DNA from: Methanomassiliicoccales archaeon
GTDB lineage: Archaea; Thermoplasmatota; Thermoplasmata; Methanomassiliicoccales; UBA472
Direction: 5' to 3'
DNA length: 64,000 nucleotides
NCBI GenBank assembly: GCA_013415865.1
Contig: CP058896.1
Span: 267,957-331,956 of the forward strand
Below the pieces are notes generated by a model that ran no database searches, was not told the DNA's origin, and saw only the letters and a list, made by a program, of their open reading frames with translations. Made by a program: the position numbers and the translations under genes. Positions 7,249-40,256 of the stretch are shown piece after piece; positions within the stretch are counted from its first letter, which is position 1, and every line of letters starts with the position of its first letter.

Positions 7249-7414
7249 ATTCAAGACATTGCAGATAGGGGAATAAAAGACATGGCATCCATCGATGTAC
7301 ATCCGTACTCCGATGGACCGGCCGATGCGGCCCGCCCACAGCAAACGTTTAATCGGACAAGATGCTCACCACCGCCTCATGGTCTGGTCAGAAACGAAGG
7401 AGGGGGCCGTCGGG

Positions 7415-23310: not shown

Positions 23311-24051
23311 TAATTCTATTTAAATATTGGGGTAATCATAATTAAATCATTGTGATATGAAAAAAATATTCTTGACATTCAACTAGCCAGGCTAGTGATA
23401 TAAATAATAGTGTATCTAAGAAATTAAACTTCCTCCTTCATACTTTCTGTAATTTATTAGGGAGCAATCAGGCGTAATGGGTTTATACATTAAGATAATA
23501 TTAATATAGTAATATTCTAAATAGAGCGTTAAAATATCTCGAGGGCACATATTTTTTCGAAAGACGAATGATATAAAACCTCGATATACGCAATTTCAAA
23601 GCTTGAAGGTTCTGTAACAGCGGTTATTGTAGCTATTATACTAAAACTATTTTTATGATCGGTGTTAACCTTATAAATTATACTAAGTTCCAAACATCGT
23701 TCGACAATCCTTTGGATCAAAATTTATAATAAAGGGACGGCATGTGAAACGAGTGATGTTGAATTTATAAAATATGGCTCTAGCATGTCTTACCGAATGT
23801 GATGAAATATTAAAATTAAATAGAGATTATATAATGTTTCCTCCTCGAAAAAATTGAAGTGTCTGATGCTAAATAATATTCTTTATTTGTTTCTTCATTT
23901 TATCCTTTTTTAAAATGGCGTTTAAAAAAAATACATGAATAAATTATATAAAACAAAATTATCTGCGTATAATAGATTAAATAAATCTTTAATTTTATAG
24001 TCGACTCGATGTATAAGATTGGGTAATTTTAAATTGAAAATCGGTGAAAAT

Positions 24052-25446
24052 ATGCATGTAACTGCAATAATTTTAGCTGGTGGTGTCGGGAAAAGATTTG
24101 GGCTTGATGTACCAAAACAATTTGTAAAGTTAGCTGGTAAACCAATTATTTCGCATACCATTGACATATTTGAGAAAAATAGTATGATTAAAGAAATTAT
24201 AATTGTAGTTAATAAAGAATATTATAATTATTTAAATAATCTAGTAAAAAGTGGCCACGATTCAAATAAAATTAAAATAGTGGTAGGTGGTGATACTCGT
24301 CAAGAATCTTCATTCAATGGATTATTAGCTTGTTCAAAAAGTACTACTCACGTACTAATACATGATGCTGTTCGTCCATTTATAGACCAAGAAATTATTT
24401 ATGAATGCATTTTGAAACTTGAAGAATATGATGCAATTGATGTATGCATTGATTCGTCAGATACTCTAGTCGAAATTAATGAAAACAATGAAATCATCAA
24501 AATACCAAATAGAACGTCGATTAAAAGAGGACAAACCCCCCAAGCTTTTAAATTTGATGTGATTTTTAATGCACATAAAATATGCCAATCAAAGGGAATA
24601 CAGAATTCTACGGATGATTGTAACCTTGTATTACAATCAAATTTATGCAAAATACATGTAATCAATGGATCAAACCATAATATAAAGATTACTAATCCTA
24701 TTGACATCTCAATAGCAGAGAAAATTTTTCAAATTAGAGAGAAAAAAAGTCAATTGCTTAGTTATGATGATTTATTGCATAAATTGAATAATAAAGTGAT
24801 AGTAGTTGTGGGAGGAAGTTCTGGAATAGGTAAATCAATATGTGAGATTGGGAACAAACTTGGATCTGTTACCATCCCTTTGTCTAGATCTAATGGATTT
24901 GATGTTAGAAATCCAGAAACCATTAAATTTCATCTAAGTAAAATTTATAAAAAATATGAAAGAATCGATGCTGTAGTGATATGTGCGGCAATTCTCCATC
25001 GAAATAAATTTGAAAACTTTACCGATGATGAAATTAGAGAATTAATAGAAATCAACTTGACTGGGAATGCATATGTGGCAAAATATTCTATACCATATTT
25101 AAAAAAGACAAATGGCAAATTAGTTTTTTTTGCTTCGAGCTCATATTATAAGGGAAGGGGCGAATATTCGACCTATAGCGCAACAAAAGCTGGAATAGTA
25201 AATTTAATGCAATCGTTATCCGAGGAATTAGAGGACAAGGTTAGCGTTTTGGCCATTAATCCTCAAAGAACGAAGACACCATTAAGAACACGTAACTTTG
25301 GGGACGAGGATATAGATACATTGTTATCTGCGGATTTTGTAGCGTTATCCACATTAAATTCAATTGCTAAGGAAGGGAACAATGGTTGCATAATCGATAT
25401 AAGATTGTCGGACGAAAAAAAAGGAAGCCTTAAATATAATGAATAG
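24052..25446 (+). CDS. Bifunctional IspD/TarI-like cytidylyltransferase + short-chain dehydrogenase/reductase (CDP-ribitol-synthase-like architecture)
   Basis: Start at ATG 24052 (MHVTAIILAGGVGKRFGLDVPKQFVKLAGKPII = IspD/TarI nucleotide-binding loop). The C-terminal half has the SDR motifs VVGGSSGIGKS (TGxxxGxG-like) and YSATKAGIVNL (YxxxK). Confidence 0.75.
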   Translation: MHVTAIILAGGVGKRFGLDVPKQFVKLAGKPIISHTIDIFEKNSMIKEIIIVVNKEYYNYLNNLVKSGHDSNKIKIVVGGDTRQESSFNGLLACSKSTTHVLIHDAVRPFIDQEIIYECILKLEEYDAIDVCIDSSDTLVEINENNEIIKIPNRTSIKRGQTPQAFKFDVIFNAHKICQSKGIQNSTDDCNLVLQSNLCKIHVINGSNHNIKITNPIDISIAEKIFQIREKKSQLLSYDDLLHKLNNKVIVVVGGSSGIGKSICEIGNKLGSVTIPLSRSNGFDVRNPETIKFHLSKIYKKYERIDAVVICAAILHRNKFENFTDDEIRELIEINLTGNAYVAKYSIPYLKKTNGKLVFFASSSYYKGRGEYSTYSATKAGIVNLMQSLSEELEDKVSVLAINPQRTKTPLRTRNFGDEDIDTLLSADFVALSTLNSIAKEGNNGCIIDIRLSDEKKGSLKYNE

Positions 25447-26752
25447 ATTTAAATTTATTTTAAATAACTAGGTTCAGATATTTATTTTTGGATAATACAG
25501 TATTTTCCACTTCTTCAATTAAGATAGATATTTAATCGTAATGTGAATATTGTGATTTGGATGCACTTCATGGTTAAAGATACATCAGCTGCGATATGGG
25601 AATATATAGCTGCCCTATGGAGTTTATATTGATAAGCCTCTTTGGGGGATTTTCAGATATATGCGAAGAGATTGATTCTCGGCAAAGATGGCTATATAAA
25701 TATTAAATATATCGTCTCGTTCGCATTTAATATTGGCTCATAGCGCTCGCTCAATCGGTTCTATCTTCTCTCTGGAAATGGAGCTCGCAAAATTGACCAG
25801 ATGAAATCGAGGATGACGATGCAAGGAAAAAAGGGTGGTTTTTCGGTCGTTAATCACACATTGATTGAAAAGACCCAGAAGCAAATTGTCGGCAGGTTTG
25901 ATTTACAATCATTATGAGGATAGAAGCGTATGATTTTACAACTTTGTGGATTGTCCTAATTCGATAGGACCGGATACGGTTTCTTTTTCCTATTAGAACT
26001 ACCTAAAGTATAATTTGGCAAGGAAGATAAATTGATTTTCAAGACGAGGGTTGAACTAGCCGTCCAGTTAATTTAGAAGGTAAAATGCTGGAGCGATCGG
26101 ACTTCTTTCTATTCGGTGCCCAAATTGGAGGAATTGGGTGTAACGTTCAATCTTGTCGATGATGCCATGTTTCCTTTAAGAGGCTCAATCTAATCTTTTC
26201 GACGAGTTAGAAGGCCAAGTGATGTGGCTGGTGTAGGTGTTCCCACTATTGAATCTGAACGATTCCTGGAAGCTTGACGACCATTATTAGGAGGGTTACG
26301 ATCGTTTCTATGAGTTCTTCATGGAGCTGGGCAAATGTCTGGAGAAGGTTAAGGTCGATTTCGTGACTGTCGGCAAGCATTTTCGAGCGACTATCTCGGA
26401 CTAGTTGGAGATGTGCAGAGAATGGGATGGAAAAGTGTAATGTGAAGTGGAAGATTGCAGATGTTCTACCGAGACCACAAGCCGTACCCCGAATATGTGA
26501 ATATCAGGTCAGAAAGATTGGTATAAGAGTTATGAATCTCCTTTTAAGTTATTATAACCTACAATATCCTAAAAGGTATTGATCAGTGCCTCGAAATTCA
26601 AAAATCAAATTAAATGGTGTATACGCCATCTAGCTTTTTTGCCAAATACAGAAACATTGAGCGTTGCAGGGATTGATTTTCAACGATTAGATGGTTGAAA
26701 TTGTAAAAGTGTGGTATAAAATAAATAATAATAGAAGAATTTCGATTTATCC
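25447..26752. other. 1.3-kb ORF-free, stop-riddled segment of intermediate GC (probable decayed gene remnants)
   Basis: The track has no ORF of 60 aa or more in any frame across 1.3 kb. G+C is visibly higher than in the surrounding island genes. My translations give only short fragments (e.g. MELGKCLEKVKVDFVTVGKHFRATISD) separated by stop codons. Confidence 0.35.
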
Positions 26753-27793
26753 ATGGATGTACAAAATAATAAAACAATATGGATAGATTTAAAATGTCCT
26801 TCAGATGTTCATTTTTTTTATTCTGTTATGATTAATTTAAATAAGTTTCGGTATTTAATAACGACTCGAAAAAGAGCTGAAACACATCAATTGTCTATTA
26901 ATTATGGAATGAAAGGAATTCAAATAGGTTCTGATCATCAAAATCACTTATTGAAGGGCATGTATTATTTTGATAGGACCTTCAAACTTTCAATGATAAA
27001 AAAAGAATTTGATGCAATATTCTCATTTGAAGATGCGATTGGTCCAATATTAGGAAAATTTAAAAATAAGCCATCATATTTATTTTGCGATAATGATTTA
27101 AAATTGAATAAATCTTTTTCTAAATTTCAAAAAATAGAATCTAAGTTTAAGAATTTTGCAGATTATTTAATTATTCCTGAAATTTCTATTAAAGAATTTA
27201 TTAATAATTATTCAAATCCTAAAATAATAACATATAATGGCTATAAAGAAAATATTTATATCTCAGATTTTGAGCCGGATCCAAATTTTGATTTATTGGA
27301 TTACATTCCAAATTACGTATTAATACGTCCAGAAGCCATAGGGTCATTTTATGTTGCAGAAAAAAAGAGTATAGTTCCTCAGATTGTAAAATTATTAAAA
27401 AAAGAAAATTTTAACATAGTATATTTGCCTCGCGATCCTCAAGATTTTAGCTATGTTTCTAAAGATGAAGTTTTTATTCCTCCCAAAATTTACAAGGGTT
27501 TGGATTTGTGTTATCACAGTCAGGCAGTGTTAACTGGTTCCGGAACATTAGCTAGAGAGGCGGCAATTCTCGGTAAGACCTCAGTATCTTTTTTTCCTGG
27601 TTCAAAATTATTATCGGTAGATTCAGATTTAATAAGAAAGAAAAAAATGATTCACACTAGAGATCCTAAAGAAATCGTCAATTATATTTTAAATAGTAAA
27701 GAAGATAAAAATTACAATTATAAAACTAACTCAATAAAAGTGCGCGATGAGTTGATATCGAAATTAGGTGAAACATTAGATGAAGAGTTGTGA
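26753..27793 (+). CDS. DUF354-like GT-B-fold protein (putative glycosyltransferase/epimerase-like)
   Basis: 346 aa. The N-terminus KTIWIDLKCPSDVHFFYSVMINL matches the characteristic start of archaeal DUF354 proteins as I remember them. The C-terminal segment AVLTGSGTLAREAAILGKTSVSF is GT-B-like. Confidence 0.5.
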   Translation: MDVQNNKTIWIDLKCPSDVHFFYSVMINLNKFRYLITTRKRAETHQLSINYGMKGIQIGSDHQNHLLKGMYYFDRTFKLSMIKKEFDAIFSFEDAIGPILGKFKNKPSYLFCDNDLKLNKSFSKFQKIESKFKNFADYLIIPEISIKEFINNYSNPKIITYNGYKENIYISDFEPDPNFDLLDYIPNYVLIRPEAIGSFYVAEKKSIVPQIVKLLKKENFNIVYLPRDPQDFSYVSKDEVFIPPKIYKGLDLCYHSQAVLTGSGTLAREAAILGKTSVSFFPGSKLLSVDSDLIRKKKMIHTRDPKEIVNYILNSKEDKNYNYKTNSIKVRDELISKLGETLDEEL

Positions 27794-28880
27794 TTTAAAG
27801 TTATTATTTATAACTCCATATCCACCCGATGTGGGAGGAATATCTACTTATTCAAGTACATTAATAAGCCACTTAAATAATAAAAATTATTCTATAAGGA
27901 TATTAAGAATATATATAGTAAACAAAACCATGTTAAGTTATATTAATAAGATGAAATCGATAGTGTGTAATATCAATATATTATTAAAAGATGAGAGCAA
28001 TCTTGTTCATATTCAATCATCATCAGATTTTTCATTTATTGAAAATTCAATATATTTATTTATAATACGAATCTTAAATAATAAAAAAACAATATTTCAT
28101 CTCCATTCTCCAAATTTCACAACATTTTATCAAAGAAAAAATAAATTTATTAAAAAATATATAAAATTAATATTTAAAAAATCTGATAAAATTATTGTTT
28201 TATCAAATAAAGATCGCCAAGTGTTATTGAATATGAAAATTGAAGAACGAGATATATATTTAATAAGGAATTTCAATGGAGTTCAGAATGTATATAATGA
28301 TATAAAAACAGCAAAGATGTTAGAAATAAATGAAACTAACAATGTAATTTTATCAATAGGAAATTTAGAAGCTCGAAAAGGATTTGATATCCTAATTAAA
28401 TCCCTTTTTGAGTTACGCAAAATTCGAACAGATTTTGTATGCTATATTATTGGAAGCGGAAAAGAATATGATTCATTAAATAATTTAATAGATGAATTAA
28501 ATTTAAATGATAATGTTCGTTTGGTTGGGCGGATTAATTCAAAAACCCTAATTGATTATTATAAAAAATCTAAATTGGTTATTTTAACTAGTTATGACGA
28601 GGGATTGCCAATGGTGATGTTTGAAGCACTATCATTTGGCAAGCCTTTTATTGGAACAAATGTAGGTGGCATCCCAGAGATTATTAATTCAAATAATTAT
28701 GGTTATATTGTTGAACCTGGCAATATTAAAGAAATTACTTACTGTTTAAACAGTGCACTGAATAAAGAATGGGATGCTGATTTAATTTTGGAATATTCAA
28801 ATCAATTTTCCATTGATCGGATGTTGGAAAAAATAGAACAAATTTATTATGATTTATATATGGAAGGATTAAAACTATGA
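27780..28880 (+). CDS. Glycosyltransferase family 4 (group 1)
   Basis: 366 aa. The N-terminus KLLFITPYPPDVGGISTY and the C-terminal motif SYDEGLPMVMFEALSFGKPFIGTNVGGIPEII (E-x7-E) are both family signatures. It overlaps the upstream gene by 14 nt. Confidence 0.8.
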   Translation: MKSCDLKLLFITPYPPDVGGISTYSSTLISHLNNKNYSIRILRIYIVNKTMLSYINKMKSIVCNINILLKDESNLVHIQSSSDFSFIENSIYLFIIRILNNKKTIFHLHSPNFTTFYQRKNKFIKKYIKLIFKKSDKIIVLSNKDRQVLLNMKIEERDIYLIRNFNGVQNVYNDIKTAKMLEINETNNVILSIGNLEARKGFDILIKSLFELRKIRTDFVCYIIGSGKEYDSLNNLIDELNLNDNVRLVGRINSKTLIDYYKKSKLVILTSYDEGLPMVMFEALSFGKPFIGTNVGGIPEIINSNNYGYIVEPGNIKEITYCLNSALNKEWDADLILEYSNQFSIDRMLEKIEQIYYDLYMEGLKL

Positions 28881-30019
28881 TTTTAAATGAGAAAAAAGAG
28901 AAACAACAGAAAAAAATTCACATACTGTTTTTTGGTATGCCGCCTGGCAATAATTTAATTGACGGTTATTCTAAATGGTTTTCACCAATTATAAAAAATT
29001 TGAAAAAAAATGATAGATTAAATGTTTATTATATTAATTACAACAAGATATTGAACGAAAAATTTGAAATATTACGTTTTATATTAATTCCATATTTAAT
29101 ATATAAGTTACACAAATATAAAGATGAAATAGACATTGTTCACGTTTTACGACAAAATGCATGGTATTACAATATTTTTTATGCTCTAAAAATAAAAAAG
29201 AATATAACCCCATTGAAAATAATTACTGTTCATGATATTTATACAGCGAAAGGAAAGGTAAATTTTAAAATTATTAAAAACATTGCTCACGCAGATGCAA
29301 TATTTTGTCCATCCAACTATACAGCAAATGATATTCGTACAATTTTGAAAATTAACAAACCCGTATATGTTACTTATAATCCTTTAGATCCATCATTTTA
29401 TTGTATGGGTACTGATGATAAATTAAAAATGAGAAAAAATATTTTAAAAGAAAGATCGTCTCGCAAAGTCTTGTTATCTATAGCATCAGAAATGCCCAGG
29501 AAAAATTTTGAAAAATTGTTAGAAGTATTATTTCTATTTAATACTTCAATGAAGGAAAAGATACTATTGATTAAGGTAGGCCAGTTTACAAAATTAAGAT
29601 ATAAATATATTAATATTGCAAAAAAATTTGGAATAGAGAATGACATTTTATGGATAAATTATGCAAACGAAAAAGATTTGTTATATCTATATAATATTTC
29701 AGATATTTTTATTACATTAAGTGATGTCGAAGGTTTTTGTATGCCTTTGATTGAAGCCATGGCTTGTGGATTACCTATAATTGGGTCGAAATCTTCTGCC
29801 ATCCCAGAAATTGTAGGAAATGCAGGAATATTGGTAAATAATAATGATAATAAAGAAATTATTGAGGCGATAAACACATTGTTGTATAATATTGATAAAA
29901 GAAATGAGGTTATTGAAAATGGATTTAATAGAATAAGAGCATTCCACGAACAAGAAATAAGTAGAATATATTTTGAATCGTATTTAACAGCCTTGGAAAA
30001 GGGATTGAATGTTAAGTAA
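28877..30019 (+). CDS. Glycosyltransferase family 4 (group 1)
   Basis: 380 aa with the motif SDVEGFCMPLIEAMACGLPIIGSKSSAIPEIVGNAGILV. It has an ATGA start/stop overlap with the upstream gene. Confidence 0.75.
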   Translation: MILNEKKEKQQKKIHILFFGMPPGNNLIDGYSKWFSPIIKNLKKNDRLNVYYINYNKILNEKFEILRFILIPYLIYKLHKYKDEIDIVHVLRQNAWYYNIFYALKIKKNITPLKIITVHDIYTAKGKVNFKIIKNIAHADAIFCPSNYTANDIRTILKINKPVYVTYNPLDPSFYCMGTDDKLKMRKNILKERSSRKVLLSIASEMPRKNFEKLLEVLFLFNTSMKEKILLIKVGQFTKLRYKYINIAKKFGIENDILWINYANEKDLLYLYNISDIFITLSDVEGFCMPLIEAMACGLPIIGSKSSAIPEIVGNAGILVNNNDNKEIIEAINTLLYNIDKRNEVIENGFNRIRAFHEQEISRIYFESYLTALEKGLNVK

Positions 30020-31565
30020 ATTAAATAAAAAATTATCTATTATATCATTTTACACAATAATATCATCGATTTTATTGATTTCCATATATGATAAAGGTGT
30101 GACAGATCCATTTCTTCATGGACACATTTCAACCATCATTAAATTAATTAATAACCCAAATATTAAAATATTGAATTCCGATATGCAATTTTGGCCTCTG
30201 GCAGCTGTACAAATTATAATTTTTAATTTATTGTTTAACATATCTCCGATTACTATTCAATTTTTACCGTTAATTGGTTTATTATTTGTAATTACTTTTC
30301 CTTTATTATTGACTAGGTTTTTCCCTCTAGCAATTGGTATATTATTATCATTGATTGTACTATCATCATGGATATTACCCTACAATTATAGTGTATGGCC
30401 ACATGCATTTGGTTATTATTTATTTTTTATATTAATATATATAATTTATACATTTTACACTATAAAAAATTCTAGATATATAATTCTTATAATTATTTTA
30501 TTTATTGCTATTAATTTTTATTCTTATTCGACCTCTGTTTGGTCATTATCATTTTTAACTTTTATAATTTTATTTAATTACCTATACAATACATTTAAAT
30601 ATAAATCGAATTATAAATTTCAACCTTTTGCATTATTAATTGCTATGTTCGTCATATATTTTGGATTTAATAAAATCGTATATGAATCGTATTTTTCTAA
30701 TTTATATGATTCAGTTGGAGAGAGTAGCATATGGGAAAGATTAAATATATTTAATAATTTATTAATTTCTGACAATATTAAAACTATTTATTACACTAAC
30801 ACAAATTCTGAATTTATTTCGTATTTGGGATTAATTCGATTTCTTATCATTTTTATTCCAATAGTATATTTTTTAATCTATATCCTAAGAAATAAAGATG
30901 AATTAATTTCGAAACAATATTATGTATTTATCCCGTCCATGTTATTTATTTCTATAATTGATATCCTATCATATACGTCGGTATCCAGTAATGCGACTTC
31001 GTCGATTTTGTTCCGATATTATTCATTAATGGCCCCAATTGCAGTATTTTTTTCAATATCTGCATTGATGAAAAAAAGTCAAAGACGAGTCATAATTTTA
31101 ACAATCTATGCATCCCTAATTTTATTATTGTCAATTATAATATTATTTTCTAATCTTTACTCTACAAATATTGTCACTTCAAATGCGCATTTTAACAATG
31201 AAATTAATGGAATAGAGTGGACGATAGAGCATCGAGCTATTGGATCAATGATAATATCTGATCACCATACAGTAGGCCGAACGCTCATAGTTTCGAATGT
31301 TATCCATAGCGATTTGAAATTGTATCAAGACGTTTCATATTACAATGATTATTTATTTGAAAATTTTATTTCTAATAAGAAATCAATAATTGAAAATAAA
31401 TCGACACTAATCATAGTCAATAATGAAATAGAAATATTTCCAACGTCTGGCAATGATTGGATCAATTATCAGCCGCTCTTAAATTATAAACAAAATTATA
31501 CGATGAGTGAATATAATAATAAAGTATTTGATGATAGTAACATCAGGGTGTTTTTTAATAATTGA
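30009..31565 (+). CDS. Polytopic membrane protein, putative glycan polymerase or GT-C-type glycosyltransferase
   Basis: 518 aa with about 12 hydrophobic helices followed by a ~130-aa soluble C-terminal domain. Its position inside the glycosyltransferase operon suggests this role. I recognise no diagnostic catalytic motif. Confidence 0.5.
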   Translation: MLSKLNKKLSIISFYTIISSILLISIYDKGVTDPFLHGHISTIIKLINNPNIKILNSDMQFWPLAAVQIIIFNLLFNISPITIQFLPLIGLLFVITFPLLLTRFFPLAIGILLSLIVLSSWILPYNYSVWPHAFGYYLFFILIYIIYTFYTIKNSRYIILIIILFIAINFYSYSTSVWSLSFLTFIILFNYLYNTFKYKSNYKFQPFALLIAMFVIYFGFNKIVYESYFSNLYDSVGESSIWERLNIFNNLLISDNIKTIYYTNTNSEFISYLGLIRFLIIFIPIVYFLIYILRNKDELISKQYYVFIPSMLFISIIDILSYTSVSSNATSSILFRYYSLMAPIAVFFSISALMKKSQRRVIILTIYASLILLLSIIILFSNLYSTNIVTSNAHFNNEINGIEWTIEHRAIGSMIISDHHTVGRTLIVSNVIHSDLKLYQDVSYYNDYLFENFISNKKSIIENKSTLIIVNNEIEIFPTSGNDWINYQPLLNYKQNYTMSEYNNKVFDDSNIRVFFNN

Positions 31566-31577
31566 AGGGAGTTTAAA

Positions 31578-32618
31578 ATGAAAAAAATATTATTAATTGG
31601 TAACGCTAATTCTAATAGTAGTAGCAGAATATTTCAAAATTTAATCATAGACCTCATCCAACAAAATCGAAACATCACTGTCATCAGTGGTAATAAACCG
31701 CATAAAAATAACGTTGAATGGATTTCAGTATCAGAATTATCAGACATTTTTATAATAAATTTTATATTTATCCAATTAAAAATTATGAAATATATCTTAA
31801 AGAGTTATCATAATTACAACGACATTGTAATATTGATAGAACATTTTGTATTTATTAATATTTTATGTAGAATATTAAATATTAAAAATATTATTTTTGT
31901 GGATGGGAAATCAGTAAATACATTTTCATCAACATTTTCAAAGATTAGTTTTCATTATGCCAGTAAATTGATTGTTCCAGCAACGAGTTTAATTAAAGAC
32001 TGGAAAATTGAAAAATTCAAACCAAAAATTTTTCTATCGAAATATTATATTGATATAAATAAATTTTATATAAAGAAAGATTATAAAAATCGAAATAAAA
32101 ATATAGGTTTTATTGGTCGTTTTACTGAAGAAAAAAGGTTATCGTTATTTTTAGAATTTTGTTCATTAGTTATTAATATAGATCCAAAAATAAAGATTTA
32201 CATTGCTGGAGATGGACGATTAAAAAAAGATTTGATATACAACATTCAAAAATACAATATGGAGAATAAAGTAAGATTATGTGGTTGGATCGAAGATAAT
32301 AAACTAGCAGATTTTTATAACGAGCTTAGATTATTAATTATCACTTCAAAGGTAGAAGGAGGGCCACTAGTTGCATTAGAATCGATGTCTTGTGGAACAC
32401 CGATTTTATCTACTAAGGTTGGAATCATTGAAGATGTAATTGTGGATGGCATAAATGGATATATTTTTAATGAAGAAAATATAATGAATCAGGCGATTAA
32501 AGTTGTTAAGTTATTAAATTCCGAAGAATTAAATACTGTTTCTGTGAACGCAAGAAATACAATTGTAAATAATTATAGTTATGAATCTGGTATTCAAGAT
32601 ATGAATAAAATTCTATAA
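31578..32618 (+). CDS. Glycosyltransferase family 4 (group 1)
   Basis: 346 aa with the motif SKVEGGPLVALESMSCGTPILSTKVGIIEDVIVDGINGYIF. Confidence 0.8.
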   Translation: MKKILLIGNANSNSSSRIFQNLIIDLIQQNRNITVISGNKPHKNNVEWISVSELSDIFIINFIFIQLKIMKYILKSYHNYNDIVILIEHFVFINILCRILNIKNIIFVDGKSVNTFSSTFSKISFHYASKLIVPATSLIKDWKIEKFKPKIFLSKYYIDINKFYIKKDYKNRNKNIGFIGRFTEEKRLSLFLEFCSLVINIDPKIKIYIAGDGRLKKDLIYNIQKYNMENKVRLCGWIEDNKLADFYNELRLLIITSKVEGGPLVALESMSCGTPILSTKVGIIEDVIVDGINGYIFNEENIMNQAIKVVKLLNSEELNTVSVNARNTIVNNYSYESGIQDMNKIL

Positions 32619-33431
32619 CTGAAATTGAATGATATCATGACCCGAAATTCTTTCATTAATCGAAGGAATTTTCATGTAATCACCATACAACTGGGTTAGT
32701 ATCTCATTATAATGTTCTGGTATGGGGAATAATAAATTTTCAAATTTAATATAAATGGACTTATGAAACCATTCAATGGGATATGAAATGTGATCAATAT
32801 CATCAAATGGCCATGCACTGAAAATTACCAGATCCTCCTTCTTTTTTCTTGATAGTATAGAAGAATACCCTTTTTGGAATAATATTTTTGGGAGAGGGAC
32901 AAGACAACTTATAAAATTTGCAAACCCCTCATATTTAGAAGAATTTTTTACCCATATATATTTAATTAAACCAATATATCCAAAAATTGAAACTAATTTC
33001 CAATAAATATATCGTTCATATTTGTTAATCGGTGCATAATCTAAAGGAAAAATATCAATAAATATTCCTTTTGGAATGTCAAGTTTAGAGGTTGATCGTT
33101 CTACAAATTTTGTATTTAAATTCATCATTTTTGAATAATAAAATGGAAAATTTTTATGAGATTTAGAGGAGATTATTGAAATGTTAGGTGGCAACTCTGA
33201 CGCTGGTAATTTAAGTAATTTTTCATAATCATCCCTCATCATCACAAGATCCAAATCATCATCCCAAGGAATGAACCCATTATGCCTCACGGCTCCCAAC
33301 AACGTTCCACAAAATAAAAAATATTTTAACCCATGTTTCTTACAAATTTTATCAAATTCAATCAAAATTTCTAGTTCCTTTTGATGAATTTTATTAAGCA
33401 AATCTTCATTGATGACAAAAATTGTATCCAC
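32613..33431 (-). CDS. LicD-family phosphotransferase (phosphocholine / ribitol-phosphate transferase family)
   Basis: 272 aa with a GTG start. It carries the canonical LicD motif FCGTLLGAVRHNGFIPWDDDLDLVMMRDDYEKL. It is convergent with the last GT4 gene, overlapping it by 6 nt. Confidence 0.8.
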   Translation of the reverse strand: MDTIFVINEDLLNKIHQKELEILIEFDKICKKHGLKYFLFCGTLLGAVRHNGFIPWDDDLDLVMMRDDYEKLLKLPASELPPNISIISSKSHKNFPFYYSKMMNLNTKFVERSTSKLDIPKGIFIDIFPLDYAPINKYERYIYWKLVSIFGYIGLIKYIWVKNSSKYEGFANFISCLVPLPKILFQKGYSSILSRKKKEDLVIFSAWPFDDIDHISYPIEWFHKSIYIKFENLLFPIPEHYNEILTQLYGDYMKIPSINERISGHDIIQFQL

Positions 33432-33853
33432 CTCATATGATTATTATTAACTCCTTCTCATTAATGTTATCGAATTGATATTGATTGTAATATTTATAAC
33501 GCAAGCTTTAAATTTAATTCTTAGGCGATTAAGATGTGAATAATATACATATTTAAGGATATAATAAAACCTTTCGGTCTTCTGAATCAATATTAAAGTG
33601 TTTCGCTTTGTTATTGGTTCGCTTGGGATTAAATATAAAGGTTTTTATCTAATCATATGAAATTATTTCCATATCTATTTGAAGGAGTCAATGGAGCTGA
33701 CTATTCTCCCGTATCGCAGCTGATATGTCTTAAACCCCGAAATGCATCCCAAATAACAAATATTCACATTTCGATTAAATATCTATCTAGATTGAAAATG
33801 TGCAAAAATAGTATAAATTATAAATTATATTTATTTCTTTTTCTTTTCGTCCT

Positions 33854-33880
33854 TCTTTCCGCCCTTTCCGCACTTTCCGC
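33854..33880. repeat. 3 x 9-nt tandem repeat (N-CTTTCCGC) at right edge of the AT-rich island
   Basis: TCTTTCCGC CCTTTCCGC ACTTTCCGC occupies 33854-33880, preceded by the degenerate copy TTCTTTTCGTCC. It forms a GC-rich patch in AT-rich non-coding DNA. Confidence 0.5.
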
Positions 33881-34267
33881 ATGACATTGAATTCTCGCCT
33901 CCTCTTGGGACTTTACCCAATGTGGATAATGCATTTGTTGGCCAAGTATTTCAATCTATTCTTTTTAATCGAAAATTAAGAATAATATTATTTTTCAAAA
34001 ATTAACACTCATTGGCCTTGAGATCAATCAATCTCGAACATGATGACAGGGCCAATTGCCTGACATACAACAACAAAGGCCGACGGTCAACAACATTTAT
34101 TTAATTAGAACGTTATTTAATTGCTCGGGATGCACGGGACCCGTTCAGGCATGGACGGGCCTATCAGGCTGTTAGAATGCCATCGTCCCTCGTCCGATGG
34201 CACGATGCATACGAACAGCCCTACATGATGACGACATGCTCGCGTTCCCTCGTCCGGGAGCTGAGAG

Positions 34268-36055
34268 ATGGAGATAGACACCAGCAAGCTGTTGCTCGAG
34301 TTCGGAGCGATCATGCTCATCGCCTTCATAGGCGCAGCCCTGGCCTTCAGGGCGAAGCAGTCGGCGGTCCTAGGCTACATCGTCGTCGGCATGCTCATAG
34401 GGCCTTCGATCTACCTGGAGATCGGCCCTTTCACCTACACGGGCCTCGTCAGCGAGGTCGGCTTCATCGAGGCGCTGTCGCAGATAGGCATCATCCTCCT
34501 CATCTTCTTCGTAGGTTTAGAGTTCAGCATCGACAAGATAAAGCGCGTCAAGGGGCCGGCGGTCATCCTTTCCTTCATAGATGTCGGCATCAACCTCTTC
34601 GTGGGCTTCCTTCTTGCCTTCGGCCTCGGATGGCCCCTCATCGATTCGATATTCCTCGCCGCCGTCATGGCGATGTCCTGCTCCGCCGTCGCGATGAAGA
34701 CGCTCATCGAGCTCGACAGGATGTCGAGGCCTGAGACCGAGTACATCATGGGCATGGTCATCCTCGAGGAGTTCATCTCGATGGTCTTCCTCACCGTGGT
34801 CGGCGGCCTCGTCATCAAGATAGACCCCGACTTCACCGTGGGCATGATGCTCCTGGGCATGGCCGGGTTCTTCATCTTCTTCGCTATCCTTGCCCTTGTT
34901 ATCATCCCGCGCTCCATCAGCTACATCTCAAGGATGAAGAGCGACGAGCTCTTCGTGCTCTTCATGCTCGCCATCGTCCTCCTCTCCGCGTGGTTCGCCG
35001 AGTTCTGCGGCGTCCCGAAGCTGATAGGCGCCTTCTTCATCGGGATGGTCTTCGCGGAGACGAAGATCATCGACCGCATGGAGAAGAAGATCTCCCCGAT
35101 AAGGGACGCCTTCGTCGCGATATTCTTCGTCTCCTTCGGCATGCTCATCGACCCGGGCATGTTCATACCCGTGCTGCCGGTCATCGCCCTGGCGATCGTC
35201 CTCATCCTCACGGCGGAGATGATCATCATGCCTATGGTCTCGTACCTGATCGGTTTCAACAGGCGCGCCTCGGTGCAGATAGGCGCCTCCTTCAGCGCCA
35301 GGGGCGGCGAGTCGGTCATGTACGCATCGATCGGCTCTCAATCAGCAGGGGCGGTCAAGGGCGCCGAGCTGAACCCCATAGCAGGAGGCATCACCTTCGT
35401 CATGTCCGCGCTGTGCCCCTATTTCATAAGGAAGAGCTATGACATCGCGGACTACTTCGCCCTGAAGGTCCCCGCCTCGATAAAGTATGGTGCGGCTGTC
35501 TTCTCGAGGACGCTCGGCAAGCTCGTGTTCCCGGCGACCTTCCGTCCGTTCAAGATTACAAGGACGTTCATCTTCACCCTAATGGTCATCGTGGCATCGC
35601 TCATCGCCACGGCATCGACCTCAGGTGCGCTTCACCTCGCCTTCTTCGCATTGTCGATCGCGATGTGCGTCTACGTCTGGTACATCATGGTCAAGAATAT
35701 GCGGGGCATAGTGAGGCAGATAGACTATTCCAATCTAGGAGCCGTCCTAGGAAGCGACGAGAAGCTCACGAAGTACATCGCGACCTCGATATCGCTAGGC
35801 CTGGTCATGTGCTCCACAGTCTGCTTCATGTTCCCCATCCTCTGGCAGTCGGTCATCATCATCTCCCTCGCCTACGTGGCGTGGTTCGCCTATCTCATGA
35901 AGCTCGTCTACGACCGCACCTGCTCCAGCTCGAGGTACATCAAGATAGCCAAGGACCAGTTCACCGGCAGGTTCAGCTCCTTCGACAGCACGGAGAAGAA
36001 GAACGGCATGATGTCCTTGGACCTTGAGATAGAGTACAGGCAGAGGGAGAAGTGA
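34268..36055 (+). CDS. Cation:proton antiporter, CPA2 (Kef/NapA-like) with extra C-terminal membrane domain
   Basis: 595 aa. The N-terminus LLLEFGAIMLIAFIGAALAFRAKQSAVLGYIVVGMLIGPS is the typical Na_H_exchanger start. About 12 TM helices are followed by 4-5 more helices. Confidence 0.8.
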   Translation: MEIDTSKLLLEFGAIMLIAFIGAALAFRAKQSAVLGYIVVGMLIGPSIYLEIGPFTYTGLVSEVGFIEALSQIGIILLIFFVGLEFSIDKIKRVKGPAVILSFIDVGINLFVGFLLAFGLGWPLIDSIFLAAVMAMSCSAVAMKTLIELDRMSRPETEYIMGMVILEEFISMVFLTVVGGLVIKIDPDFTVGMMLLGMAGFFIFFAILALVIIPRSISYISRMKSDELFVLFMLAIVLLSAWFAEFCGVPKLIGAFFIGMVFAETKIIDRMEKKISPIRDAFVAIFFVSFGMLIDPGMFIPVLPVIALAIVLILTAEMIIMPMVSYLIGFNRRASVQIGASFSARGGESVMYASIGSQSAGAVKGAELNPIAGGITFVMSALCPYFIRKSYDIADYFALKVPASIKYGAAVFSRTLGKLVFPATFRPFKITRTFIFTLMVIVASLIATASTSGALHLAFFALSIAMCVYVWYIMVKNMRGIVRQIDYSNLGAVLGSDEKLTKYIATSISLGLVMCSTVCFMFPILWQSVIIISLAYVAWFAYLMKLVYDRTCSSSRYIKIAKDQFTGRFSSFDSTEKKNGMMSLDLEIEYRQREK

Positions 36056-36058
36056 ACG

Positions 36059-36682
36059 TCACCCTCTTCCTACGCTGCTCTCATCCTTGATCAGCCTCAG
36101 TTTTGCAACAAGAAGATCTACCTGGGTGGAAGGATCGCACTTTTTACTAGGGAGAGTTCGTCCTTGTGACTCGTGATGGACCCTGAGCTTTTTCGCGTTG
36201 GTCATGGCGATCTCTAACCTTGGGAACAACATCTGGAATACGTCCTTGGACTTTTCATAATCGGCTATGTACTTCCTAAGCTCCTTGATAACATCGCCAC
36301 ATGATCCGGATCAAGACCTGTGAAGGGTGAAGTGAAGTAGGAACCATATCTCAAAACAAGGGTTGGAGATAGCACAATGGACCGGGACCTTCGAACATAC
36401 AGCATCAATGATGTCCTCCTCACTATTGTTGTCCACATCAAAGACGCACCAGACCTCGTCTCCTCCCTGCAGGTCAAAATCTAATTCTTTAATCATCTTT
36501 TCCGCACTCGCAATCATACCTCTGGGGGTCCGGTCCTTAGACGGTTTTACTATGATGCTTATCCTATACTCCTTCCTAAAGCCCTCAAAATATTTTTTCT
36601 CTGTCCTGTTCCCCTCGCAGATTATCGCGATCCTTTTTCGCGGCGCTCTACAGGACTCTTTCCTTCGAGACCTGCTCGTCAC
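36059..36682 (-). pseudogene. RloB-like (Toprim-type) gene interrupted by an in-frame TGA at 36311-36313
   Basis: The GTG start at 36682 overlaps the ATPase stop codon (GTGA). The N-terminal part RKRIAIICEGNRTEKKYF...VWCVFDVDNN...AISNPCFEIWFLLHF matches the RloB motifs. After the TGA, the same frame stays open for 83 more codons (SGSCGDVIKELRKYIADYEKSKDVFQML...CDPSTQVDLLVAKL), which looks like an RloB C-terminus. The combined length of 207 codons is typical for the family. Confidence 0.65.
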
Positions 36683-37956
36683 ACCACCTTCCCAGAGATG
36701 ACTGGGATGGCACCATATCTCCCGGTCAGATACCCCTTTTGGATGTCCCTGTCCTTCCTCTCGCTGAATTCTGACAGGGAATAAAGTCGTGTGCATCCAT
36801 CTTCCACATCCTTCTCAGTGAACCATATCTGGTCCCTTCTGAAGAATTCCAGGTCCAAGAGATTGGTGTCATGGGAGGTGAATATCAGCTGCGCTCCATT
36901 GGTGTTCTGTTGCGGGTCGTGGAAAAGTTCGATCAAGAATCGTACTAGATGGTGATGGAGCTTCACCTCGATCTCATCGACCGCCAGGACCTTTCCGTTC
37001 CTAAGAGCGTCAACCCAGTACCCCATGAGCATGAAGAATTTTTTTGTTCCTTCGGATTCCTCTCTTAGGTCCAGGTCGTACATCATAAGATGGCCATCAC
37101 GATCTTTTATGGCGTGTTTCATCTTGACCTCATGCCTCATAAGGCGGCCTTTTGTCCGGGACAGGAGCGGTCTGAACTCTGGGGGTGCGCTGTTCATCAG
37201 ATTATCAAGCTCTTCTTCTGTGACCATTGTTCTATTCGTCTCGATCTCAACTATACCTAGGTCTGCTACGGTCATCGACCTGACGATGGCATCATGATTG
37301 TCTTTTGACGATTCCATTACATCTAGCGTATATTTTTCATCCATTGGATGAACCAGGTCGCTCGGTCCTACTGTCCGTAACCTCTCTCCGAACCACTCCA
37401 GGACGGCATGCGTCTTCTGATAGTTCATCTGCGTAGCCCGAGAGACGTAGAGCACGTTCTCGGGTGTCATCTCCTTTATCCGTTCTTGCTCCGCTTTGTC
37501 GGTCTTGAAGATGAACTGGTCCTCATGTCTTTCAAACACCGTCGCCTTCCGTCCTTTCGGATAATGGTAAAGGAACTCGGTTATGATCTTGGAACCATCA
37601 TATTCGAACCCATAGCGATATTCCTTGCCCTTCTCGATGAATGCTACCTCCAAGGCCGTGGGTCTATCTGAAGAGCCCTTGTCGAATTTGAATGGGAAAT
37701 ATGGTAGTCGCAATCCCCTCTGAAAGCTGTGAGAGTTCATGACCATGAATCCCATCAGTGATAGGGCATGAAGGACGTTCGACTTTCCTGAGGCGTTCGC
37801 CCCATATATTGCAGCAGACTTCAGGACCTTGTCACTTTTTAAGATATCGCTACTGATGAGGTTATCAGGATGGCTTTGATCGGAAGTTCCGACCATGCTC
37901 AATGTCGCCATATCTTTTATCGACCTGAAATTTGATACTTTGAATTCTAAAAGCAT
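36679..37956 (-). CDS. AAA/ABC-type ATPase (AAA_15/AAA_21-like), AbiLi/RloA-like partner of RloB
   Basis: Start at ATG 37956 (MLLEFKVSNFRSIKD...). The Walker A motif is IYGANASGKSNVLHAL. The C-terminal region VLAVDEIEVKLHHHLVRFLIELF...AQLIFTSHDTNLLD covers Walker B, the D-loop and the H-loop. Confidence 0.75.
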   Translation of the reverse strand: MLLEFKVSNFRSIKDMATLSMVGTSDQSHPDNLISSDILKSDKVLKSAAIYGANASGKSNVLHALSLMGFMVMNSHSFQRGLRLPYFPFKFDKGSSDRPTALEVAFIEKGKEYRYGFEYDGSKIITEFLYHYPKGRKATVFERHEDQFIFKTDKAEQERIKEMTPENVLYVSRATQMNYQKTHAVLEWFGERLRTVGPSDLVHPMDEKYTLDVMESSKDNHDAIVRSMTVADLGIVEIETNRTMVTEEELDNLMNSAPPEFRPLLSRTKGRLMRHEVKMKHAIKDRDGHLMMYDLDLREESEGTKKFFMLMGYWVDALRNGKVLAVDEIEVKLHHHLVRFLIELFHDPQQNTNGAQLIFTSHDTNLLDLEFFRRDQIWFTEKDVEDGCTRLYSLSEFSERKDRDIQKGYLTGRYGAIPVISGKVV

Positions 37957-37984
37957 TAAAATCACCAATTTTATGATTGATTTT

Positions 37985-37999
37985 TGTGATATTATCACA
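37985..37999. promoter_or_regulatory. Perfect 7-1-7 palindrome TGTGATAtTATCACA upstream of the AbiL-like operon
   Basis: It lies 29-43 nt upstream of ATG 37956, within AT-rich promoter-like DNA, and has operator-like geometry. Confidence 0.3.
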
Positions 38000-38731
38000 A
38001 TATTCTCTATTTAATCTATTTGATTTATGATTTTAAATTACCAGAATTAAAAATATTTTTAACGCCTCACAATAGAATGATGTTATTTTTTATCGCCAGC
38101 TCTCATCTAGACCCGCTTAGAAGATGTCTGTGTGGCAAAGTTTGATAATATTCTGGATAAGATGATGTACAAAGAGGTACGACATCGTCATCAGCATCAT
38201 GAAAATGGAGCGCAAAGGTGGCCAGCTTTGAGAGGAACAATATAAAATGGTCCCGTGGGATTATCGAGGACAGGAGGAGGGCATCGACAAGACCAACAAA
38301 AAGATCGAGCGTCGAATTGTATAACCCCCTCCCTCGATCATGATGGGTTATCACATGATCGTAGGAGCCCTCGGGTCAAAAATCATAGCATCTGAACGAC
38401 TAATTGTGGACGACGTTGAGATGACGATGAGAACATAGGATTTCATAAACAACATTGAGCTTGATTCGAACGCCCTTGCATCGTACATGATACTCAGCTT
38501 GAACGATTGGCGATGCTCTTGGAAAAATCGTGGCGTCCTATATTGAAGGACTGGAATCACATAGCTTTTATCAAAGGTCATACTATTGTTGAGGTGATTC
38601 CACCTTTATCGATATTTATCAGAACATACAGAAAGTTCAATACTGACGGAACATCAATGACATGCCTGCCCCTGCGTCCTTGCATGACGAAGGAGGCGGA
38701 GGCCGTGACGACATCTCAAGAGGTCGGAAAG

Positions 38732-39133
38732 ATGAGGAAGAGGGTGCTTTTCATCTGCACGCACAACTCCGCGAGGTCCCAGATGGCCGAAGGCCTTGTC
38801 AACGCATTGCACGACAGGCGTTGGGTCGCGCACAGCGCGGGCACGTCGCCTACGAATGTGCATCCCTTGGCCGTCAAGGCGATGGCCGAGATAGGCATAG
38901 ACATCAGCCGCCATCACTCCAAGGCGCTCAAGGACTTCAAGGGGGAGGAGTTCGACCTCGTGGTGACGGTATGCGATGACGCCAGCGAGAACTGTCCCTT
39001 CTTCCCGGCGAAGAGGATCGTTCACAAAGGTTTCAAGGACCCTTCTAAGGCCGAGGGCACCGAGGAGGAGAGGCTGGAGGCCTTCAGGAAGGTGAGGGAC
39101 GAGATAAAGGACTGGCTGATGCAGGCCTTATAA
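38732..39133 (+). CDS. arsC: Arsenate reductase, LMW-PTPase family (thioredoxin-coupled type)
   Basis: Start at ATG 38732 (MRKRVLFICTHNSARSQMAEG = C-x5-R-S P-loop). A downstream Cys pair, TVCDDASENCPFFP, is present. ATG 38684 is an alternative start. Confidence 0.8.
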   Translation: MRKRVLFICTHNSARSQMAEGLVNALHDRRWVAHSAGTSPTNVHPLAVKAMAEIGIDISRHHSKALKDFKGEEFDLVVTVCDDASENCPFFPAKRIVHKGFKDPSKAEGTEEERLEAFRKVRDEIKDWLMQAL

Positions 39134-39296
39134 TGAACCGAGGTCCGTTCAAACCTCCTATCTTCCGCCTGGTCGGACACATTGTTTTATTAACAGATTC
39201 CGCAATCCCCGCTCGAAGGATGCTCGGCAAAGGTGTCATAGAGGGACCTTATGGTCTGTCTGCATCGCGAGCGGAGGTCGCAGAACCTTGACCGGA

Positions 39297-40256
39297 ATGG
39301 ATTGGATCTGGATAGGTTTCATCGTTTTCATATTGTCAATGCTCGCCATCGACCTTGGGGTCGTCAACAGGAAGGCGCATGAGATCAAGCCAAAAGAGGC
39401 GTTCATGATGTGGGGCTTCTGGATCTCCCTGGCCATCGCCTTCAACGTCCTTGTATACATCTGGTTCGGAAGCGAACAGGCCCTGATGTTCACGACGGGT
39501 TACATCATGGAGCTCGCGCTCAGCGTTGACAACATGTTCGTGTTCGTGCTGGTCTTCACCTACTTCTGCGTGCCGAAGGAATGCCAGCACAAGGTGCTGT
39601 TCTGGGGGGTGCTCGGCGCCCTGGTGATGAGGGCGATCTTCATCTTCGCGGGCATAGCGATCATCGAAAGGTTCGAATGGGTGATCTACATCTTCGGGGC
39701 GTTCCTGATAATAACCGCCTTCAAGATGGTACATGGCGGGGACAAGGAGGTCGAGCCTGAGAACAATCCGGTCGTCAGGCTGTTCCGAAGGTTCTTCCCC
39801 GTCGAGGACAGGTTCCACGGCAGCAAGTTCTTCATACGCTCCGCCAAGGGCACGTTGGTCGCCACGCCCCTCTTCGTTACATTGATATTCGTCGAGACGA
39901 CCGACCTGGTGTTCGCATTAGACTCGATCCCCGCGATCATAGCTATAACCCAGATACCTTTCATCGTCTACTCTTCGAACGCCTTCGCGATACTGGGCCT
40001 CAGGTCCCTCTACTTCGTCCTGGCGAGCATGATGAACGCCTTCGTGTACCTGAAGTACGGTCTCGCCGTCATCCTAGGCTTCGTCGGGGCGAAGATGCTG
40101 CTCTCCGAGTTCGTGCATATCGATGTCCTCGTGTCCCTCGCGGTGATAGTGTCGGTGCTTGCGATATCCGTCATCGCCTCCTGGTCAAAGTACAAGGACG
40201 CAAAGGCGCAGCTGGCCGCCTACGAGGAGCAGGTCTGCAAGGTCAGGAAGGACTGA
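39297..40256 (+). CDS. TerC/Alx-family integral membrane protein
   Basis: The TerC family signatures LALSVDNMFVFVLVF and FALDSIPAIIAIT are present, with about 9 TM helices. Confidence 0.8.
   Translation: MDWIWIGFIVFILSMLAIDLGVVNRKAHEIKPKEAFMMWGFWISLAIAFNVLVYIWFGSEQALMFTTGYIMELALSVDNMFVFVLVFTYFCVPKECQHKVLFWGVLGALVMRAIFIFAGIAIIERFEWVIYIFGAFLIITAFKMVHGGDKEVEPENNPVVRLFRRFFPVEDRFHGSKFFIRSAKGTLVATPLFVTLIFVETTDLVFALDSIPAIIAITQIPFIVYSSNAFAILGLRSLYFVLASMMNAFVYLKYGLAVILGFVGAKMLLSEFVHIDVLVSLAVIVSVLAISVIASWSKYKDAKAQLAAYEEQVCKVRKD

Follow-up and report, generated by a model that had tools for sequence, protein, structure and literature searches.

What does a single in-frame TGA mean in the RloB gene of an archaeal ATPase-RloB pair? 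The pair lies in a stretch of 64,000 nucleotides (the window) from the Methanomassiliicoccales MAG Ch47, which originates from an aquifer 2.8 km deep in Siberia. Ch47 makes up 0.52% of its metagenome, was scaffolded with MinION data and Pilon-polished with Illumina data, and shares an AAI of only 47-59% with its known relatives (PMC7509429). An earlier sequence-only reading had described an AbiL-like pair of ATPase and RloB genes in which this one codon splits the latter, a description that Pfam and PADLOC profiles as well as homologue comparison support, and had left the choice between recent nonsense inactivation, sequencing error, and read-through. We favor the first of these: with a probability of about 0.8, the TGA is a recent nonsense mutation that, in an AbiL-like pair, knocked out the toxic effector and left the ATPase intact. 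The parts of the pair are as follows:

36679-37956, minus strand: AbiLi-like ABC-type ATPase gene, 425 codons plus TGA, identified by AbiLi and AAA_21 matches.
36314-36682, minus strand: pre-stop part of the RloB/AbiLii gene, 123 codons with a GTG start, identified by PF13707 and AbiLii matches (NCBI QLH74254.1).
36311-36313, minus strand: premature in-frame TGA, codon 124 of 207, established by direct reading, the Logan assembly, and homologue alignment.
36059-36310, minus strand: post-stop part of RloB, 83 sense codons (36310-36062) plus the terminal TGA (36061-36059), identified by a PF13707 match.
36059-36232, minus strand: 57-codon ORF HPY73_01500 (QLH74253.1), listed by NCBI as a separate hypothetical protein.

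Direct reading of the minus strand returned every coordinate and motif as originally given. Both genes are chromosomal and adjacent on this strand, the GTG of RloB overlapping the TGA of the ATPase gene as GTGA (36679-36682), and the final TGA of the RloB frame is separated by 3 nt from the stop of a convergent Na+/H+ exchanger ORF at 34268-36055. The ATPase, which runs from ATG 37956 through the Walker A motif GANASGKSN to ...GKVV-TGA at 36681-36679, matches the AbiLi/AAA_15-type profiles expected of it: PADLOC AbiLi (PDLC02335) at 1.9e-97, Pfam AAA_21 (PF13304) at 1.9e-36, and AAA_15 (PF13175) at 6.5e-8; the AriA model is matched at 6.4e-34. Judged against 80 homologues, it is apparently intact, retaining 77 of the 80 columns that are conserved at >=85%, including Walker A G52-K58, D327-E328, and H362. 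Since the homologue alignments begin at residue 1, we take ATG 37956 as the start; the NCBI annotation of 405 aa probably begins 20 codons too late. Plasmid homologues of the ATPase are annotated as RloA or as ATP-binding protein and stand beside an 'RloB family protein'.

The RloB frame begins with GTG at 36682-36680 and comprises 123 + 1 + 83 = 207 codons. It carries the motifs RIAIICEGNRTEKKYF, VFDVDNN, and NPCFEIWFLLHF, and both the conserved glutamate (CEG..TE) and the DxD motif (FDVD) are located ahead of the stop, in what NCBI lists as a 123-aa RloB domain-containing protein (QLH74254.1). The resemblance to RloB is not confined to this part: of the 195 positions of PF13707, the pre-stop part covers 1-120 (6.6e-29), the post-stop part on its own 126-195 (5.1e-7), and the joined sequence 1-195 in one stretch (2.8e-41). 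The split homology therefore exceeds chance, and the region downstream of the TGA, as had been proposed, resembles an RloB C-terminus, the profile aligning across the stop. Likewise, the PADLOC AbiLii model (PDLC02337) scores 5.6e-25 with the pre-stop part and 7.3e-30 across the stop, so that a PADLOC check matches both the AbiLi and the AbiLii model; automated defence-system callers would score the module as an intact AbiL system. The 57-codon ORF HPY73_01500 is no separate gene: it begins at the first in-frame ATG after the TGA and represents the end of the RloB frame. In the NCBI list of three genes (405-aa ATPase, 123-aa RloB, 57-aa hypothetical protein), RloB is better recorded as one pseudogenised gene. 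Translational re-initiation after the TGA was considered and rejected: the ATG and GTG codons close to it lie in other frames, and an in-frame ATG comes only 27 codons downstream.

To place the stop within the family we used about 140 homologues, namely 62 genome proteins adjoining AbiLi-like ATPases, 64 proteins from metagenomes, and 18 viral loci. They are 190-267 aa long and all extend 70-90 residues past the NPCFE.W..H motif; in none of the three groups does an RloB protein naturally end, or its frame contain a stop, at the TGA site. The column aligned with the TGA is open in all 62 genome homologues and variable (F15, G9, N7, S4, P4, R4 ...), with no conserved Cys or Trp. Downstream of it, the family has near-invariant residues (K144, A159, P184, and T186), an (N/D)PST motif, and a conserved Y142, and the post-stop part of the Ch47 frame keeps 11 of 13 conserved columns. 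Its GC3 of 0.566 is like that of the pre-stop part (0.569), and the C/N similarity ratio of 0.50 compares with a median of 0.41 (rank 47 of 62 full-length homologues). By these comparisons, the post-stop part shows neither excess divergence nor extra decay. An absence of decay is equally expected under continued translation.

For the structural consequences, the closest homologue (P0002) was modelled in place of the window protein. In its AF2 model (pLDDT 92.3), the stop site maps to the loop 131-142, ahead of the helices 143-150, 164-168, 171-187, and 203-219. The stop thus separates the α/β core from a conserved C-terminal part of four helices, which is lost on truncation. The model of a myovirus RloB-like protein aligns over 210 columns, and the fold of about 210 aa is therefore conserved over its whole length. 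A Foldseek search of the PDB for a Toprim or OLD likeness of RloB gave nothing significant, and two candidate relatives among PDB sequences, arsenate reductase (0.035) and the RNase P protein (0.47), were discarded as chance-level matches of the phmmer and profile searches.

These features can be combined into a mechanism in which the interruption of RloB is most likely an ordinary recent knock-out and nothing exotic. The module would consist of two genes, the first for an AbiLi/RloA-type ABC ATPase and the second for an RloB/AbiLii effector, putatively Toprim-like. On the model of PARIS AriA/AriB and the NetFlax AAA-antitoxin/TOPRIM-toxin pairs, the ATPase of an intact system may sense infection and restrain a toxic nuclease; in the NetFlax work, the TOPRIM/RloB partner is the toxic effector that the AAA ATPase neutralises (PMC10440598). 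One evolutionarily recent substitution would then have turned a sense codon into TGA at codon 124 of the effector gene. The local sequence offers a possible route to it, as the stop is part of the following element:

36302-36313, no strand assigned: perfect 12-bp palindrome TGATCCGGATCA, with the premature TGA as its outermost triplet.

This palindrome is unique within the window, where perfect 12-bp palindromes cover just 0.43% of positions, and template switching may have perfected a quasi-palindrome into TGATCCGGATCA, thereby creating the mutation. Without the C-terminal part, which contains Lys144, Ala159, and the (N/D)PST motif, the 123-aa product is probably inactive, and because of this the module would be disarmed and the ATPase left an orphan. 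A precedent is found in a class 2 OLD nuclease, in which deletion of the helical domain abolishes both nicking and cleavage (PMC6755086).

The composition of the locus bears on its origin. The pair has a GC content of 0.47-0.48 and a GC3 of 0.57-0.59, against 0.56-0.59 and 0.73-0.87 in the neighbouring host genes, and the low values continue upstream:

37957-38683, no strand assigned: AT-rich spacer upstream of the ATPase gene, GC 0.41, divergent from the LMW-phosphatase gene.

The lower-GC islet described at about 36.06-38.6 kb is thus real in both the pair and the spacer, and we presume the latter to be the promoter region and the edge of acquired DNA. No Pfam match was obtained for the small ORFs of the spacer, and a search for mobile-element boundaries of the islet revealed neither a tRNA nor convincing direct repeats on its flanks. 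Profile matches in the surroundings identify Pirin, MFS, PQQ-repeat, TerC, LMWPc, Na_H_Exchanger, LicD, and glycosyltransferase domains. As part of the favored explanation, the AbiL-like module would have been acquired horizontally and now resides in the Ch47 chromosome.

Damage of this kind is not peculiar to Ch47. The ATPase gene precedes RloB on the same strand in 64 of 78 genome loci and in all 17 of 17 viral loci, and in about 13% of the sampled AbiLi-like loci, a figure subject to selection bias as these loci were chosen for intact ATPases, an intact ATPase stands beside a damaged RloB. Three of these cases are single nonsense codons. In the isolate Eisenbergiella tayi DSM 26961, codon 28 of RloB has changed from GAA to TAA in a gene that is 99.5% identical to an intact copy, and in the MAG SUG1206 a TAA replaces the conserved Glu; eight more loci contain RloB remnants only, and RloB is absent in four. 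The two TAA codons are independent and, lying at different sites, fit random knock-outs. Such a pattern fits the idea of a costly or toxic nuclease partner that is lost first, which bears on the mechanism of AbiL.

Among the competing explanations, the best survivor, though an unlikely one, is that the TGA arose as an error in sequencing, assembly, or polishing, or represents a minority allele caught in the consensus, and that the population has an intact 207-codon RloB gene. The low abundance of the MAG and its MinION scaffolding lend themselves to this explanation, as do the lack of decay past the stop and the fact that no independent sample of the Ch47 organism was found. Exact-protein matches occur only in the NCBI MAG and in the same Illumina run as assembled by Logan, a search of 5.8 billion proteins gave no RloB relative above 43% identity (best match 40-43%), and the DNA around the stop, with NNN in place of the TGA, had no exact match in JGI metagenomes. 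Against an error, the Logan assembly of SRR6186653, made by an independent assembler from Illumina reads alone, yields a 258-kb contig that carries the same TGA and matches at 100% identity over 13,278 bp, although it rests on the same Illumina reads as the published assembly. Furthermore, the published genome had undergone Pilon polishing with Illumina reads, and the change is of the substitution type, while nanopore errors are typically indels; an equivalent nonsense allele also exists in an isolate genome. Of the three explanations initially offered, sequencing error is accordingly disfavored by the recurrence of the TGA in a second assembly.

Read-through of the UGA, whether by leaky near-cognate or by programmed decoding, is rather improbable. 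It would yield a small dose of full-length nuclease and keep a toxic effector low, which could be advantageous because the effector class is toxic (PMC10440598). If true, low-level near-cognate or context-dependent read-through at codon 124 would amount to translational dose control of a toxic defence effector and would explain why the 83 post-stop codons are undecayed, and the frame is indeed open over these codons with family-typical conservation. The comparative evidence points the other way, in that no homologue has a stop at this site and the variable column gives no Cys or Trp signal, and the two other interrupted RloB genes use TAA, at different sites. Nor does the RNA suggest a recoding element: the local sequence folds no better than shuffled sequences (MFE -19.6 kcal/mol against a shuffle mean of -23.2, z = +1.08), and Rfam elements, SECIS included, are absent from 35000-39500 at E<=1. 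Moreover, of 55 long ORFs in the window, 31 terminate with TGA, more than with any other stop codon, and the ATPase gene and the RloB frame themselves do so too. To our knowledge, selenocysteine decoding is not known in Methanomassiliicoccales. A separate survey for genome-wide TGA recoding through same-frame ORF pairs one stop apart was set aside, its output being dominated by adjacent genes and spurious GC-rich frames. Least probable of all is a functional 123-aa minimal effector or regulator, perhaps paired with the 57-aa ORF as a split protein, as the pre-stop fragment with its entire α/β core and conserved acidic motifs and the three separate NCBI genes might suggest, but no natural RloB of 123 aa occurs among the about 140 homologues, near-invariant K144, A159, P184, and T186 sit in the C-terminal part, loss of the helical domain kills the OLD nuclease (PMC6755086), and a split form would lack 26 codons of the conserved region because its first in-frame start lies 27 codons past the stop.

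A recent nonsense knock-out of the effector gene hence remains our preferred explanation, and it can be set against several known systems. The closest is AbiL (AbiLi + AbiLii) of the Lactococcus lactis plasmid pND861, as modelled in PADLOC, which has the same order of an ATPase gene followed by an RloB-like gene, overlapping on the same strand. In contrast to it, the Ch47 pair is archaeal and chromosomal, and its effector gene is interrupted by a nonsense codon. With respect to AbiL membership, the AbiLi ATPase and the downstream RloB gene are both present, but the latter is not intact (TGA at codon 124 of 207); the mechanism of AbiL, that of lactococcal AbiL included, is still unresolved (PMC13064643). 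The effector also matches the RloB family (PF13707) of the RloA/RloB pairs first described in type I restriction-modification loci of Campylobacter. Unlike those, the Ch47 pair is not embedded among hsd genes, and no restriction-modification or hsd gene was found within about 6 kb of it.

More distant are PARIS, with its AriA ABC ATPase and AriB Toprim nuclease, Gabija, and class 1 OLD, which share the logic of an AAA_15/21-type ABC ATPase combined with a Toprim-type effector, and AbiL has been grouped with such OLD-like ATPase-Toprim systems (PMC11464382). Here, the effector belongs to the RloB family instead of DUF4435 or Toprim_OLD, and its sequence similarity to AriB is undetectable. In the NetFlax AAA-antitoxin/TOPRIM_OLD-toxin pairs of Clostridium algidicarnis and Streptococcus agalactiae, the ATPase neutralises a toxic Toprim-type partner, which is the rationale for regarding the effector gene as the partner that was lost; the same AAA node also connects to an RloB-homologous node (PMC10440598), whereas the validated toxins are TOPRIM_OLD and not RloB proper, and those pairs were assayed in E. 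coli. Seen alongside these systems, the Ch47 locus is probably one more archaeal case of the AbiLi/RloA + RloB module, which is widespread, and here the effector would only just have been knocked out.

The sequence-only reading had described an AbiL-like pair, an ATPase gene followed by an RloB gene split by an in-frame TGA, and its coordinates all proved correct in minus-strand reading:

37956 (ATG) to 36681-36679 (TGA), minus strand: ATPase ORF of 425 codons, with Walker A motif GANASGKSN and C-terminus ...GKVV
36682-36680, minus strand: GTG start of the RloB frame, overlapping the ATPase stop as GTGA
36313-36311, minus strand: premature in-frame TGA of RloB

The frame opened by this GTG encodes RIAIICEGNRTEKKYF, VFDVDNN and NPCFEIWFLLHF and continues beyond the premature TGA for 83 sense codons up to a TGA at 36061-36059, 3 nt from the stop of a convergent Na+/H+ exchanger ORF (34268-36055). 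The ATPase matches the PADLOC AbiLi profile (1.9e-97), Pfam AAA_21 (1.9e-36) and AAA_15; its matches to AriA, GajA and related ATPases are weaker. The Pfam RloB profile PF13707 aligns with the 123 pre-stop residues over profile positions 1-120 (6.6e-29) and with the 83 post-stop residues alone over positions 126-195 (5.1e-7). Its alignment across the stop, which the earlier reading had proposed, runs through the TGA unbroken: The joined sequence covers positions 1-195 of 195 in a single stretch (2.8e-41) and also matches PADLOC AbiLii (7.3e-30). Because these matches extend over both parts and the joined sequence, the profiles indicate one RloB gene interrupted by one stop rather than two genes, and the AbiLi, AbiLii and RloB matches together support the classification as an AbiL-like pair. 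The probable explanation (roughly 0.8) is that a nonsense mutation recently knocked out the effector gene of an AbiL-like module and left the ATPase intact.

According to exact-sequence matches, the ATPase corresponds to NCBI entry QLH74255.1, annotated at 405 aa, and the pre-stop part to QLH74254.1, an RloB domain protein of 123 aa. A 57-aa "hypothetical protein" (QLH74253.1 / HPY73_01500, 36059-36232) is the tail of the interrupted frame; all three sit on a 1,818,180-bp contig of the Methanomassiliicoccales MAG. One pseudogene is the appropriate annotation for the RloB locus. The NCBI ATPase start is Met21 of the 425-aa form, whose N-terminus (37897-37956) contains the conserved residues M1, L2, F5, N9 and S12. 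Homologues align from Met1, which makes ATG 37956 the likely start and probably places the NCBI start 20 codons too far downstream. Of the 80 columns conserved at ≥85%, the ATPase keeps 77, Walker A, D327-E328 and H362 among them, and differs in the other three by conservative changes only.

A search of one genome per species yielded 80 loci with ATPase relatives of 35-48% identity, the nearest being from Methanosarcinales, Methanoperedens, Bathyarchaeia, Aenigmatarchaeota, Methanolobus and Thermoplasmatales. In 62 of these, the downstream RloB gene could be aligned over most of its length and was used for comparison at the stop position: All 62 are open there and end about 70-90 residues further. 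The same picture emerged from 64 metagenome proteins found in a large protein search (best identity 40-43%), and on viral contigs the ORFs of 18 RloB loci span 190-267 aa, with an intact ATPase directly upstream in 17/17. Homologues ending at the stop position, which would have contradicted the earlier reading, were thus sought and found in none of the three sets.

The sequence beyond the stop shows no detectable decay in similarity, conserved columns or GC3. When each protein was compared with its ten best non-redundant relatives, the ratio of post-stop to pre-stop similarity was 0.50 for the window's RloB; the 62 full-length homologues have a median ratio of 0.41, and the window's gene ranks 47/62. 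Conserved columns are kept at 11/13 after the stop and, before it, at 24/28 relative to genome homologues and 33/36 relative to metagenome proteins; GC3 is equal on either side (0.569 and 0.566). At codon 183 (36134-36136), the window's RloB has Asp in the (N)PST motif where 59/62 genome and 58/64 metagenome homologues have Asn. This could reflect early relaxed constraint or a weakening older than the stop. The closest RloB relative is only 43% identical, so that "recent" is meant in qualitative terms.

Could the TGA be an error or a minority allele? The same genes occur on a 258-kb contig in the Logan assembly of run SRR6186653; over 13,278 bp, TGA included, this contig and the window agree at 100% identity. 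The run comprises Illumina data from a 2.8-km-deep aquifer in Western Siberia; Ch47, the study's single Methanomassiliicoccales MAG and the source of the window, made up 0.52% of the community; MinION reads served to join its contigs, and Pilon to polish them (PMC7509429). Two assemblers agree on a substitution-type difference, and we therefore consider this alternative unlikely, although both worked from the same reads and their agreement does not bear on allele frequency in the population. Leaky or programmed read-through of the UGA is more unlikely still: The 111 nt around the TGA are no more stably folded than shuffled sequence (z = +1.08), the region 35000-39500 has no Rfam match even at E ≤ 1, and the column aligned with the TGA is variable (F 15, G 9, N 7, S 4, P 4, R 4 and others among the 62 open genome homologues), with no hint that Cys (selenocysteine) or Trp is conserved there. 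Among long ORFs of the window, TGA is the stop used most often (31/55), and both the ATPase gene and the RloB frame terminate with it; the premature TGA shows no signs of recoding.

What the truncation removes can be seen in the AlphaFold model of the closest homologue, P0002 (220 aa, pLDDT 92.3). An α/β core (strands 29-35, 55-61, 90-96 and 117-122, with helices between) is followed by a loop (131-142) and helices 143-150, 164-168, 171-187 and 203-219. With a myovirus RloB-like model, the alignment extends over 210 columns (TM 0.70), and the fold of about 210 aa is therefore conserved end to end. That a truncated or split protein is functional is the least likely alternative, for although the 123-aa product retains the conserved Glu and DxD motifs, the stop corresponds to residue ~139 within the loop, and the product consequently lacks the whole helical part with the near-invariant K144, A159, P184 and T186. 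Sequence, profile and structure searches against the PDB found no significant similarity of RloB to solved Toprim structures. Residues 15-108 (36359-36640) marginally matched arsenate reductases of the LMW phosphatase fold (E 0.035-0.07; KRIAIICEGN versus KTIYFICTGNS), probably a fold-level or chance resemblance only. An LMWPc gene of that same family lies at 38684-39133, ~0.7 kb upstream of the ATPase start.

Damage to RloB recurs elsewhere. The gene is apparently intact in 64 of the 80 loci, and two unrelated bacterial AbiL-like loci carry a single nonsense codon: In L031 (Eisenbergiella tayi DSM 26961), GAA has become TAA at codon 28 (7301-7303) of a gene that shares 99.5% identity with the intact L034 copy (Diplocloster modestus), and in L052 (MAG SUG1206) TAA replaces the conserved Glu (1630-1632). 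The positions differ and the codons are TAA, which points to independent knock-outs and against a common recoding site. Eight loci have only partial matches: L065 is interrupted by ~310 nt (7777-8087), and L014, L023, L050, L056, L066, L067 and L075 retain remnants from one part only (N-terminal, C-terminal or middle). RloB is absent from four (L020, L030, L036, L073) despite at least 1.7 kb of downstream sequence, and two have no downstream sequence. These patterns suggest frequent loss of the effector. The ATPase is intact in 80/80, an asymmetry that is only suggestive because the loci were chosen by ATPase.

As for the origin of the mutation, a perfect 12-bp palindrome, TGATCCGGATCA, lies at 36302-36313 and has the premature TGA as its outermost triplet; it includes two GATC sites and a single TCCGGA site and occurs once in the window, where perfect 12-bp palindromes cover just 0.43% of positions. 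Since any single-base ancestor of the TGA would leave the palindrome imperfect, it is plausible, post hoc, that the stop arose from a template switch (quasi-palindrome correction) perfecting it. The lower-GC islet noted earlier was borne out: The pair and its AT-rich upstream spacer have GC 0.41-0.48 and GC3 0.57-0.59, versus GC3 0.73-0.87 in the flanking exchanger, TerC and PQQ-repeat genes, a composition consistent with horizontal acquisition. The surroundings of the pair were searched for flanking repeats, tRNAs and integrase remnants, and none turned up; plasmids often carry the ATPase family (181 records, annotated ATP-binding or RloA beside RloB). A block at ~22000-34000, far more extreme in composition (GC 0.24-0.41 per 2 kb versus ~0.55-0.59 in its flanks), holds LicD (GC3 0.24) and glycosyltransferase genes and looks like a foreign surface-polysaccharide island.

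AbiL is grouped with ABC-ATPase and Toprim systems (PMC11464382), and its mechanism is still unknown (PMC13064643). Class 2 OLD nucleases have a helical domain that provides a metal ligand and a catalytic Lys, and its deletion abolishes nicking and cleavage (PMC6755086); by analogy, the helical part of RloB may be similarly needed. The Toprim partner of related pairs acts as a toxin that the AAA ATPase neutralises, and the same ATPase node has a link to the RloB family (PMC10440598). Because of this division of roles, the effector gene would be the one whose loss is tolerated, even favoured.
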